A stretch of DNA of 64,000 nucleotides from a phage: the sequence record PZ445527.1; one strand, 5' to 3'. Positions within the stretch are counted from its first letter, which is position 1; each line of letters starts with the position of its first letter. Both the position numbers and the translations under genes were made by a program. Below are positions 15,535 to 33,247 of the stretch, in pieces. Below the pieces are notes generated by a model. The model saw nothing but the letters and a program-made list of their open reading frames with translations, was not told the DNA's origin and did no database searches.

Positions 15535-15610
15535 TGGAGCGGCTAGAGGGAATCGAACCCTACTCAGCGAGGCTTGGAAGGCCTGCGACACAACCCGTGT
15601 GCTTAACCGC
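15535..15610 (-). tRNA. tRNA-Gly(UCC)
   Basis: Manual cloverleaf: acceptor GCGGTTA/TAGCCGC, anticodon loop CTTCCAA, T loop TTCGATT, encoded CCA. One T-stem mismatch and a short D loop. Confidence 0.7.
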
Positions 15611-15618
15611 TTATTGTT

Positions 15619-16313: not shown

Positions 16314-16424
16314 AATTGAAAACTCGCAGGGTTAGCGAAACCATCCTCAATTAGCATGTTCTAGAATACTAATCAAGTTATCTCCTATTGCACGCAGCTC
16401 AAGACGAGTACGAATTTTCAATTG

Positions 16425-16531
16425 TGGCGGCTCTCAGAAACTCTTCTATTCTAGCCTCAGAAGCTTACCCCCGAACGCATGTCGGGAAAGTCTTTCCAAG
16501 CGCATCAAATAGCACCGTTACACTTTGAGCC
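16425..16531 (-). ncRNA. 107-nt structured RNA with a tRNA-like GGCTC/GAGCC terminal stem and encoded CCA
   Basis: No cloverleaf can be drawn. Internal hairpins GGAAA-GAC-TTTCC and CTTCT-11 nt-AGAAG. It sits in tRNA-gene spacing between tRNA-His and tRNA-Ser. Confidence 0.4.
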
Positions 16532-16679
16532 ATTGATGTATCAAGGAATAGAAGGACTTGAACCTTCATGAGTTAGACCATTTAACTCAACCGCTTTTTA
16601 GGGTATATTTCTAGGAGTGGATGTTCCTAGTAAACCTATTCGGCAGTCCCGTCTACCAATTCCGGCATATTCCAAGATT

Positions 16680-16774
16680 TGGAGGTAGGTAAGGGGATCG
16701 AACCATTACACCGTATCACTACGGTCAACCGATTTCAAGTCGGAGTCCATCGCCAGCCGTTGGATTGACCTACC
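16680..16774 (-). tRNA. tRNA-Ser(UGA), class II
   Basis: Acceptor GGTAGGT/ACCTACC, anticodon loop CTTGAAA, variable arm ACCGTA-GTGA-TACGGT, T loop TTCGATC, encoded CCA. Confidence 0.85.
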
Positions 16775-17238: not shown

Positions 17239-17314
17239 TGGTAGCGGGTTCCAGTACTGCCCTGGACTTACTTAGCTTATGAGACTAAGAAGAACTCTAT
17301 GCCTTCCACCCGCA
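17239..17314 (-). tRNA. tRNA-Met/Ile2(CAU)
   Basis: 76 nt: acceptor (T)GCGGGT/ACCCGC(T), TTAGT-CTCATAA-GCTAA, T stem TCCAG/CTGGA with a non-canonical loop GGCAGTA, encoded CCA. Confidence 0.6.
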
Positions 17315-17320
17315 ATTGTT

Positions 17321-17445
17321 TGGTTATTCTAGACAGGATTCGAACCTGTTATCACTTGTGCGGACTTACGAGAACCATTCTTTCACTCGAATCGAACGAG
17401 CTTCTGCCCTAGCCAAGCTGGTTTCCCCATCAACCACGCTAGAAT
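17321..17445 (-). ncRNA. oversized (about 121-125 nt) tRNA-like gene with a nested extra T-arm
   Basis: Perfect acceptor ATTCTAG/CTAGAAT, D arm TGGT-10 nt-ACCA and T arm ACAGG-TTCGAAT-CCTGT enclose about 67 nt, including a second CTCG-TTCGATT-CGAG hairpin. Confidence 0.35.
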
Positions 17446-17567
17446 GTTTGATTGTTTTCAGTGCAAGAGTCCGAGTCTTGGACACGACCGTTTCGCAAGT
17501 ACATAGGCAGCTTATCATGAGTCAGCACTTCCGAATTGCTAGCCCCGTGTTCTGCACTGAAATTTTA

Positions 17568-17915
17568 TTAGTTTAACCGTAAAGTATTATCTAATTCACC
17601 ATTAATTGTTCGGCATTCCTCTGGAATTGCTGGTGTGGCCTTGTATTCCCACCACTCAGCACCATCATATTCCCCACGTTCTAGCCAAGTTCCGTCGGCA
17701 AACCATACATTACCATAAAGTAATTGTCCACCGTATCCAGAATCATACTCAAAGTCTAGGTTATCAAGAAAATCCTCAATATCTTCTTCTGTATAGCCTA
17801 AAGGTAATACCCAAACTTTTTTATCCCCATAATACCCGAATTCTATTTTAATACACTTAATTTTAGAATTGGTATTTTTTAAGGCAAGTAACAACTCTTC
17901 TTTAGCATTACGCAT
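17568..17915 (-). CDS. hypothetical protein (115 aa)
   Basis: Minus-strand ORF between tRNA genes; acidic and Trp/Tyr-rich. Confidence 0.55.
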   Translation of the reverse strand: MRNAKEELLLALKNTNSKIKCIKIEFGYYGDKKVWVLPLGYTEEDIEDFLDNLDFEYDSGYGGQLLYGNVWFADGTWLERGEYDGAEWWEYKATPAIPEECRTINGELDNTLRLN

Positions 17916-17940: not shown

Positions 17941-18017
17941 TGGCGCGACTGATGGGATTTGAACCCACATTCCCTCCCGTGATAGGGGAGTACCATTACC
18001 AAGCCAGCCACGGTCGC
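17941..18017 (-). tRNA. tRNA-Asp-type with anticodon AUC (A34)
   Basis: Acceptor GCGACCG/CAGTCGC, CTCCC-CTATCAC-GGGAG, GTGGG-TTCAAAT-CCCAT, encoded CCA. The loop differs from the Asp CTGTCAC loop only at position 34. Confidence 0.7.
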
Positions 18018-21976: not shown

Positions 21977-22626
21977 TTTAAGTATTTTTAAGAACTCTCG
22001 TAAAAACTCTTAAAAATACAGACGATACCGGGAGAGTCATAAGTCTCACTCATTAAGTATTTCAAGACAAAATACAGTAACGTCTATTATTTTCCAGTTT
22101 AAGTCAGGGTGACTTAGTGGTTATGTCCTGCGGTATATTGAGGACTCGGTTAGGCTTGGGGTCATGACTTCCCGCCTTTTGCTGCTACTCAACAGGAGTT
22201 ATCGCGAATTACCTGTGCTATTGTGCACCATTAGTGACATCTCTCATGCCAGCATTTCCCACTTTGTGGATAGCTTGAAAAACTACTCCGATACGGAGAA
22301 AGAACTTCACTATCCTAGAATACCTTCTAAAGTTCTTCTTTAGCCTGGACATAGTTAAATCGTAATAAAACTATTCAGCAGACCGGTTGGTTAGTCTGGA
22401 ACCAACTACCGCGTGGTTTAGGCAGTGCGCAACTAACCTCGGAAGCTTTTACGTTAAAAGCACCAGTTATCCAGTTCTTACCGACCGTAGGATTCGAACC
22501 TACATCTTCCACCAGTTACGGCTTGATAATACCAATTATACTAGGACGGCAGTGTTACTACATAAGTGATTTCCACACCCCACTATTTATAAATTAGAAA
22601 AGAATTACTCTCTAATTTATGAATAT

Positions 22627-32755: not shown

Positions 32756-33247
32756 TTATAAACTATCAAGCTCCAATAGTTTAGCATCACGCCATTCTAT
32801 AGCATCCTCTAATTCTTTAAATGTTTTTGTATATTTTACGCCTTTACGAGCTATCTGGACTTGATATGATCCACTAGCTTTTTGATGAATATTTTTAATA
32901 CCTAGCTTATTGTCTTTATGCGCCCCGACATTCTTTCCGTTACTGAATCTATCAGAAGCTACTAGGTTAATAGCTCTATTATCATGTCGTATTCTATTAT
33001 CGTGGTCTACTTCAGGTGGCAGATACCCATGAATTTTAGCAAAGATTACCCTATGGGCTAAGTAGGGGTATCCTTTAATATTTAATACTATATATCCTGT
33101 AGATTTATCTAAGGAGCCTGCTGGTTTTCCGGCATATTTGGTATTAAATGTTTTATTATCTCTAGGTCTATGAGTCAATATTCCAGTATATGGATCATAA
33201 TCAAATAATTTAGCTACCTCTAGATGATCTTCTAATGTTTTTGACAT
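32756..33247 (-). CDS. HNH homing endonuclease between nrdA and nrdB (about 163 aa)
   Basis: HNH_3 motif VDHDNRIRHDNRAINL plus an AP2-like C-terminal half. The track ORF starts at 33262, but MSKTLEDH at 33247 is more likely. Confidence 0.8.
   Translation of the reverse strand: MSKTLEDHLEVAKLFDYDPYTGILTHRPRDNKTFNTKYAGKPAGSLDKSTGYIVLNIKGYPYLAHRVIFAKIHGYLPPEVDHDNRIRHDNRAINLVASDRFSNGKNVGAHKDNKLGIKNIHQKASGSYQVQIARKGVKYTKTFKELEDAIEWRDAKLLELDSL

Follow-up and report, generated by a model that had tools for sequence, protein, structure and literature searches.

The RNA gene considered here has the outline of a tRNA gene and a middle part far too long for one, and the question that it raises is what kind of RNA it encodes: a tRNA that carries an insertion or intron-like sequence, a fusion or nesting of two tRNAs, or a tRNA-derived RNA. 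The gene lies on the minus strand of a 64,000-nt stretch of phage DNA (sequence record PZ445527.1), the whole of which is called the window below. Its features are listed in the 5' to 3' order of the RNA, in which the window coordinate of any base equals 17446 minus its RNA position.

17568..17915, minus strand: upstream 115-aa ORF, a T5p065 homolog; the RNA gene starts 122 nt past its stop codon
17325..17445, minus strand: complete gene for the tRNA-like RNA, orthologous to T5 rna2; 121 nt, counted from the start of the acceptor stem and including the discriminator
17439..17445, minus strand: acceptor stem, 5' strand ATTCTAG (RNA 1-7), partner 17326-17332
17419..17436, minus strand: D arm, 4-bp stem TGGT/ACCA (RNA 10-13 / 24-27) and 10-nt loop with GGGG
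17414..17418, minus strand: helix X, 5' strand GCTTG at the anticodon-stem position (RNA 28-32), partner 17354-17358
17406..17410, minus strand: helix C, 5' strand A-GGG-C, partner 17361-17365
17403..17404, minus strand: helix A', 5' strand GA, partner TC at 17370-17371
17385..17401, minus strand: inner (second) T arm, 5-bp stem (G.U + CUCG/CGAG) and 7-nt loop TTCGATT; counted pairs are RNA 46-49 / 57-60
17372..17380, minus strand: mini-hairpin GAA-TGG-TTC, 3-bp stem with the invariant GG at its tip
17366..17369, minus strand: GUAA bulge, 4 nt, between helices A' and C (RNA 77-80)
17361..17365, minus strand: helix C, 3' strand G-UCC-G (GTCCG); the outer end of the helix is an A.G pair
17354..17358, minus strand: helix X, 3' strand CAAGT (RNA 88-92)
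17333..17349, minus strand: outer, canonical T arm ACAGG-TTCGAAT-CCTGT (stem RNA 97-101 / 109-113)
17326..17332, minus strand: acceptor stem, 3' strand CTAGAAT (RNA 114-120)
17325, minus strand: discriminator A, followed by ACCA
17324-17321, minus strand: ACCA after the discriminator, which the preliminary description had included in its span

The element and its identity with RNA2 of phage T5

The 7-bp acceptor stem, the D arm and the canonical T arm that had been described are all present on the minus strand between 17445 and 17325. The seven acceptor pairs are all Watson-Crick, and the dinucleotide CG separates the acceptor stem from the D arm. The additional hairpin CTCG-TTCGATT-CGAG is likewise present, at 17400-17386. 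The distance from the D arm to the T arm is 69 nt compared with about 22 nt in the usual case, so that the oversize reported earlier holds, with a figure of 69 nt instead of about 67 nt. The strings CTAGGGC and CTCGTAA, which had been proposed as anticodon-like loops, do occur in the RNA, but neither of them is a hairpin loop: the GGG of the former pairs with UCC, and the C that opens CGUAA has an invariant G as its partner.

Standard detectors fail on this element. Using default settings, ARAGORN called 12 tRNAs in the window, all on the strand of the element and between 15.6 and 22 kb, and the element was not among these calls. The Rfam tRNA model gave a partial match of 20.6 bits, below the gathering score of 29 bits. 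Rfam searches at E ≤ 10 with the region, the element alone and 19 relatives returned nothing beyond partial or whole tRNA matches. The single-sequence folding energy of the element was about that of a shuffled sequence (z = −0.38), and the case for a predicted structure rests on comparison with relatives.

In the record of phage T5 (AY692264), a misc_RNA named 'rna2' of 125 nt is annotated at 32962-33086, at the same site in the tRNA region. It differs from the window sequence at 8 of 125 nt, five of the differences falling within the 121 nt to the discriminator and three in the trailing bases, and several of them preserve pairing by means of G.U pairs. The RNA2 genes of T5, BF23 and Salmonella phage 5 (AY692264, AJ604531) are the same gene as that in the window, with the same length and with the same upstream ORF (the T5p065 homolog, which matches phrog_3972 and gave a negative Pfam search) and tRNA-Asp. 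The downstream side differs, since T5 has RNAIV there and the window has a different tRNA-like sequence. The best blastn match of the element with its flanks was Salmonella phage Kenya-K36 (97%), and the identity of the element to its counterparts in T5-like phages was 84-98%. By its sequence, then, the gene in the window is RNA2, the phage is T5-like and the locus is already known.

The annotation of this gene is scant. The label in the Salmonella phage 5 record AJ604531 reads 'RNA2: tRNA-like RNA with unknown functions', and the same record calls RNA1, RNA2 and RNA3 'tRNA-like', while RNAI, III, IV and 2H are called 'stable RNA'. Since 'stable RNA' is reserved for the latter group, RNA2 may have been predicted rather than isolated, as far as the labels in the T5 and phage 5 records can be taken as a guide. 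The T5 and phage 5 records give no structure, function or relatives beyond T5-like phages for RNA2, and in almost all other records the gene is left unannotated or is overlaid by 'hypothetical protein' features. No paper on RNA2 or its family was found in the literature searched, which did not include the original T5 stable-RNA papers.

Spread and fold of the RNA2 family

A blastn search with the 125-nt query matched 437 phage records, with a coverage of at least 80% in 418 of them. When the flanks were included in the query, many records matched only the unit of about 120 nt, the matches ending within a few bases of it and the flanks being divergent. RNA2 is, by these comparisons, conserved as a discrete unit and under selection. 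The weakest blastn matches were those in Pectobacterium phage DU_PP_V, Serratia phage Slocum, Salmonella phage EH2 and the T4-like Acinetobacter phages 133, Acj9 and ZZ1. The blocks common to divergent members (GAGGG, GGTTCGATTCC, TGG, CGTAA and TCCGCA) were converted into degenerate patterns, with which further loci were collected from IMG/VR, and a covariance model, R1, was built from 13 diverse sequences of the family.

The window RNA2 scored 128 bits with R1. Family members scored at least 45 bits over 105-130 nt, and ordinary tRNAs scored at most 41 bits in one search, with one at 44.5 bits in another; the matches of ordinary tRNAs span about 72 nt, as their alignment to R1 deletes the inner domain. 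A three-block pattern gave 49 metagenome loci, 48 of which were confirmed by R1. In the scan of bacterial genomes, one member locus was obtained among the matches listed after screening for a nearby outer T loop; it was confirmed by R1, and the 330-kb contig carrying it is probably a phage. Other members lie on jumbo-phage contigs of 300-570 kb and on many contigs of 50-200 kb. In total, the family comprises 66 distinct sequences. It spans unrelated groups of large phages, with a breadth and a fold that appear to be undescribed so far, and Rfam holds no family for RNAs of the RNA2 type.

Base pairs were counted in these 66 distinct homologs. In an alignment fitted to a model built on the proposed structure, and hence favouring that structure, 91.6% of the cells of the proposed pairs were standard, compared with 59% in shuffled sequences and 34-47% when the partners were slid. 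Changes on both sides were found in 29 of the 34 proposed pairs. All pairs covaried in the acceptor stem (7/7, with 91% of cells paired), the D stem (4/4, 95.9%) and helix X (5/5, 95.7%). The four counted pairs of the inner T stem also covaried (93.4% of cells paired) around a nearly invariant loop, and in the outer T stem four of the five pairs did so, the innermost G-C being constant (98.9% of cells paired). RNAalifold, to which the proposed structure was not supplied, recovered the acceptor stem, the D stem, helix X and both T arms, and it extended the inner T stem by a G.U pair, the fifth, which makes the inner T arm a standard arm of 5 bp and 7 nt.

The helix formed by positions 28-32 and 88-92 falls exactly at the anticodon-stem site of the tRNA frame. 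When the Rfam tRNA model was aligned to one relative (L242), it took helix X as the anticodon stem and placed 51 nt where five anticodon-loop positions are expected. We showed that the top half of RNA2 is that of an ordinary tRNA, with D and T arms of the usual kind, 7 bp in the acceptor stem and 5 bp in the anticodon stem, and that a conserved domain of about 55 nt replaces the 7-nt anticodon loop. Compared with canonical tRNAs (RF00005), RNA2 shares acceptor, D, anticodon-stem and T helices of standard length and a variable loop of 4-5 nt; it is also found in tRNA arrays, and some relatives pass the Rfam threshold over their whole length. It differs in the structured domain of about 55 nt, so that the anticodon stem closes this domain and not a canonical 7-nt loop with U33 and an unpaired anticodon. 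Like RNA2, tmRNA combines the top half of a tRNA with another structure in place of the anticodon arm; unlike tmRNA, RNA2 is only about 121 nt long and has neither a tag reading frame nor a pseudoknot ring. ARAGORN with the -m option gave 0 tmRNA genes, and no Rfam tmRNA match was found on RNA2.

Within the inner domain, the core of helix C pairs GGGY (37-40) with RUCC (81-84). Its G-C, G-C and G.U pairs are nearly invariant, its closing pair is U-A in 31 sequences or C-G in 13, and none of 5000 shuffles matched the observed Watson-Crick count. The position flanking helix C alternates between A.G and G.A. In helix A', the pair G42-C76 is G-C in 63 of 65 sequences, and N43-N75 (UA in 20, AU in 19, GC in 11, UG in 4 and CG in 1) is the top mutual-information pair outside the helices already assigned. 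As C76 is paired with the invariant G42, GUAA (77-80) forms a 4-nt bulge with a single nucleotide on the facing strand. This GUAA, a GNRA-type sequence, is invariant across the members found, including the blastn matches and those of a scan that did not require it. The stem of the mini-hairpin takes the forms GAA/UUC, GUA/UAC, UUA/UAA, CUA/UAG and AUA/UAU; its complementarity was above that of all 2000 shuffles, and 72% of its cells were paired in the model-fitted alignment.

From the supported pairs, helix X is followed in the inner domain by a small internal loop, and helix C by the GUAA bulge and the 2-bp helix A'. These lead into a three-way junction, which was shown to bear an arm of the canonical T type and a UGG-tipped hairpin of 3 bp. 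Two other pairings were tried. A UGG/CCG helix, which was part of the first model and was also drawn by RNAalifold, gave 11 Watson-Crick pairs against 11.3 expected, that is, no covariation beyond composition, and was therefore replaced by GGGY/RUCC together with the UGG-tipped mini-hairpin. A pseudoknot between AGAA upstream of the inner T arm and UUCU after UGG, which would be an alternative arrangement of the inner junction, was 58% paired and had weak, non-significant support (p about 0.06); a 2-bp version in another register was supported and corresponds to helix A'. The motifs CGUAA and GAAAG also match 16S h44 and the 23S L11-binding region; these matches were judged too short to carry meaning.

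The same comparison bears on the origin of the locus. The preliminary description had allowed for two tRNAs fused or nested by recombination and for an assembly error. RNA2 is neither a recent recombination product nor an assembly error: relatives from very different phages keep the architecture with compensatory changes, and two ordinary adjacent tRNAs at the position of RNA2 were seen in no relative compared. A wider form of these ideas, in which RNA2 would be a defunct tRNA gene, a scar left by recombination or an artefact of assembly, or the region would be protein-coding, can draw on the homing endonucleases that shuffle the tRNA regions of T5-like phages, on the 50- and 86-aa ORFs that overlap RNA2 and on the hypothetical proteins placed there in several GenBank records. 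However, hundreds of genomes from phage groups unrelated to each other share the architecture and its compensatory changes, the overlapping ORFs lack conservation (the one in Slocum is annotated on the opposite strand), and the substitutions track base-pairing and not codon positions, so that this explanation is hardly credible.

Intron, anticodon and operon element as alternatives

Having its extra domain at the site of the anticodon loop, RNA2 could be read as an intron-containing tRNA, namely a tRNA-Arg(CCG) whose anticodon loop is interrupted by a structured intron of about 48 nt and would read G-U-CCG-C-A after splicing. ARAGORN with introns allowed made no call at default stringency; at a relaxed threshold it returned tRNA-Arg(CCG) with a 48-nt intron at 33/34. 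Four of the 19 relatives exceeded the Rfam tRNA gathering score, over their whole length and with an insertion of about 51 nt. The nearly invariant UCCRYA would supply U33 with its U, the CC of the would-be anticodon pairs with GG in the insert as in anticodon-intron helices, and tRNA-Arg(CCG) is absent among the 651 tRNAs in member loci. Furthermore, the succession of helix X, GCU, helix C, GUAA and helix A' has a topology like that of a bulge-helix-bulge.

The resemblance to the bulge-helix-bulge pre-tRNAs of archaea and eukaryotes extends to several points: in both, extra sequence in the anticodon loop pairs with flanking loop bases and extends the anticodon stem, and unpaired stretches lie on opposite strands around a helix of 4-5 bp. 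A true bulge-helix-bulge, however, has two 3-nt bulges around a 4-bp helix, while the loops of RNA2 are 3x2 and 1x4 and its spliced loop would be non-canonical. We know of no splicing endonuclease in the hosts of RNA2 phages and, to our knowledge, there is no bacterial or phage enzyme that removes introns of this type. With 48-55 nt, the insert is far below the size of a group I intron (at least about 200 nt plus the core), and no intron family was matched in Rfam at E ≤ 10. Position 37 after splicing would be C or U, a pyrimidine unlike that position in real tRNAs, and the 'anticodon' is CCA (Trp) instead of CCG in 5-6 lineages, which would change the amino acid. Acceptor and discriminator bases are unconserved, the T4-like Acinetobacter members lack a proper acceptor stem, and default ARAGORN was negative even with introns allowed. 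Taken together, these points make an intron very improbable. Of the earlier idea of a tRNA with an inserted or intron-like element, the tRNA frame and the insert are thus retained, and removal of the insert as an intron is unsupported.

The second alternative starts from the invariant GUAA. In the preliminary description, CGU was taken as a candidate threonine anticodon. In the scan without CGTAA as a search condition, three more lineages appeared, all of them with UGUAA, and no other variant was seen; since only C or U precedes GUAA, the motif is YGUAA, and both forms can be read as Thr anticodons. RNA2 might accordingly be a mimic of the tRNA-Thr anticodon, in which Y-G-U-A-A would represent CGU/UGU with A37 and A38 stacked on a 5-bp stem, and which would act as a decoy or regulator for ThrRS, the t6A enzymes or an anticodon nuclease like AriB of PARIS. 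In favour of such mimicry, the 3' strand of helix C follows directly after GUAA, as tRNA positions 39-43 follow positions 34-38, and tRNA-Thr is the nearest neighbour in 11 of about 62 slots against 7.6% of tRNAs, an enrichment that is partly due to related contigs. A CGU loop also occurs in the E. coli thrS operator. The PARIS nuclease AriB cuts E. coli tRNA-Thr(UGU), has a weak activity on tRNA-Thr(CGU) and is countered by T5 tRNAs (PMC12409363), which fits this alternative as well.

Against it, the first base of the 'anticodon' is paired with a G (G-C in 63 of 65 sequences, and the G is altered too in two of the three UGUAA lineages), and any nucleotide may precede the 'anticodon', so that no U33 is conserved. 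The sequence GUAA is of the GNRA type, and its conservation would be explained by a tertiary-contact motif of this kind. RNA2 is accompanied by genuine tRNA-Thr genes that have the same anticodons, and for this reason a replacement of tRNA-Thr(CGU) by RNA2 was also rejected. The outer frame is not closest to tRNA-Thr, and a similarity comparison gave no support for its recent descent from tRNA-Thr. Finally, the AriB recognition string UAAU is missing in the T5-type sequence, which has UAAG. The mimicry of a Thr anticodon is considered unlikely, and the CGU anticodon as such was not borne out, given the paired C, the lack of a conserved U before it, the co-occurring tRNA-Thr(CGU) genes and a frame that is not Thr-like.

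Genomic context bears on a third alternative. At most loci, RNA2 lies on the same strand as the neighbouring tRNA genes and 0-10 nt from them, and thus occupies a tRNA slot. No promoter or terminator of its own was seen for the window RNA2. Both observations would suit a cis-acting element of the tRNA operon transcript, for instance a spacer with a processing or stabilising role that would recruit RNase P, and would leave RNA2 with no function as a free RNA. On the other hand, three members (L009, L095 and L250) lie more than 3 kb from any tRNA, the inner domain is conserved although it is dispensable for recognition by RNase P, and the strict invariance of GUAA, UGG, UCC and UUCGAUU exceeds the needs of a spacer. 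Such a cis-acting role is decidedly unlikely in our judgement. The context gave no protein partner either, as no recurrent protein family was found within 3 kb of RNA2 across 34 loci.

A proposed role as a tRNA mimic

The explanation that we favour, and regard as fairly probable when taken as a whole, is that RNA2 is a member of a non-coding RNA family that is tRNA-shaped and widespread in phages, and that it is a stable, non-decoding tRNA mimic that is processed like a tRNA and engages a tRNA-recognising factor. This comes close to the tRNA-derived RNA considered at the outset, as far as the tRNA frame and the insert with its T arm and GG-tipped hairpin are concerned.

As a non-decoding tRNA mimic, RNA2 would be cotranscribed with the neighbouring tRNA genes and excised by the tRNA maturation enzymes, RNase P acting at the 5' end and 3' trimming and CCA addition completing the other end. 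The inner T loop and the GG of the mini-hairpin may dock with each other in the manner of the T and D loops of tRNAs, which would give the RNA two 'elbows'; the bases of this proposed docking are invariant. Having no 7-nt anticodon loop, RNA2 should be unable to decode. Acceptor sequences and discriminator bases vary freely in the family, and CCA is mostly not encoded. In the T4-like Acinetobacter members, the acceptor and D stems are degenerate, and the inner domain and the T arm are kept. From the free variation of acceptor and discriminator and from these degenerate acceptor stems, aminoacylation is probably not needed. In the simplest reading, the conserved lower domain would be the functional part, and it may bind a host tRNA-recognising factor or a phage factor encoded elsewhere. 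Candidate partners would be a tRNA-targeting defence nuclease, a tRNA-processing enzyme or a tRNA-modifying enzyme.

Two kinds of known RNA invite comparison with such a mimic. The species 1 and 2 RNAs of T4 (rnaC and rnaD) are stable RNAs of 119-139 nt from a phage tRNA cluster; in rnaC, the T arm resembles that of a tRNA. They were rejected as homologs, as R1 matched only tRNAs in the T4 tRNA region and the order of motifs differs. The bacterial Y RNA YrlA is non-decoding, mimics the tRNA elbow with its T and D arms and is acted on by tRNA enzymes; its RNA ends lie in the stem that binds Rsr, and it has one elbow. No YrlA match (RF02553) was found on the RNA2 element in the Rfam search, and no gene for Rsr (Ro60) or other recurrent nearby protein family was linked to RNA2. 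The tRNA-like module of YrlA is the subject of PMC4201824.

A decoy function of RNA2 would be pure inference on our part. In its most specific form, which we put forward tentatively and consider rather unlikely, RNA2 would define a class of 'double-elbow' tRNA mimics widespread in large virulent phages (T5-like phages, T4-like Acinetobacter phages and jumbo phages), whose second T loop, GG hairpin and GUAA bulge would capture or neutralise a conserved host tRNA-recognising factor such as a tRNA-targeting immune nuclease. Phage tRNAs have recently been shown to counter tRNA-cleaving defences, for example PARIS and retron effectors, and a conserved non-decoding tRNA look-alike is an obvious candidate for a related role.

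In conclusion, RNA2 is no oddity of T5, being a strongly conserved structured RNA common to large phages of unrelated groups. With the family model and its fold, RNA2 can be annotated correctly in hundreds of phage genomes. If the double-elbow proposal is true, these mimics would represent an RNA-based counter-defence that phages carry alongside their tRNA arrays.

Sequences and tRNA calls around RNA2

Directly downstream of RNA2 lay a second tRNA-like sequence, and further matches were found elsewhere in the window.

17239-17313, minus strand, second tRNA-like sequence directly downstream of RNA2
16314-16680, minus strand, homologs of RNA1, RNAI and RNAIII, near-identical to the T5 misc_RNAs
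17941-18017, minus strand, tRNA-Asp called by ARAGORN
22479-22550, minus strand, tRNA-like match to the Rfam tRNA model (35.5 bits)
15538-15611, minus strand, tRNA-like match to the Rfam tRNA-Sec model (30.9 bits)

The downstream sequence combined a 6-bp acceptor (GCGGGU/ACCCGC), a CUCAUAA loop (anticodon CAU) on a 5-bp stem and a 3' end of UACCA, while the D stem was absent, with GGAAGG at the expected place, and the T arm carried the non-canonical loop GGCAGUA. It was called by neither ARAGORN nor Rfam, and T5 has no counterpart at the corresponding site.

The RNA1/RNAI/RNAIII stretch was flanked by tRNA-His and tRNA-Ser. RNA1 (144 nt) is, like RNA2, an oversized tRNA-like RNA, and a partial Rfam tRNA match (16543-16612) fell inside it. 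For tRNA-Asp, ARAGORN gave the anticodon AUC, whose wobble base is A. In the record of Salmonella phage 5 (AJ604531), this tRNA is described as reading GAU. The tRNA and tRNA-Sec model matches both lacked an ARAGORN call.

Protein annotations and reading frames over RNA2

In Serratia phage Slocum, a hypothetical-protein CDS (L004:1459-1638) overlies the RNA2 element on the opposite strand, and many further GenBank records carry such features; these are probably mis-annotations. Two ORFs in the window overlap the RNA2 gene.

17316-17576, plus strand, ORF of 86 aa
17366-17518, minus strand, ORF of 50 aa

Both are mechanical ORFs, and no conservation was seen for either.

RNA2 relatives in other phages

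An unrelated metagenomic phage contig (L256) with an RNA2 family member at 2639-2756 held another oversized gene, which differed from that member in sequence and is a separate gene.

L256:3514-3652, oversized tRNA-like gene of 139 nt, Rfam tRNA model (31 bits)

In the Acinetobacter T4-like versions, from phage 133 (L011), Acj9 (L013) and Henu6/ZZ1 (L005), the acceptor and D stems were degenerate and replaced by a GGTGGAAGG stretch. In phage 133, tRNA-Gly and tRNA-Cys directly abut the RNA2 element, one on each side; since the element lies directly between them, processing of these adjoining tRNAs would release it.
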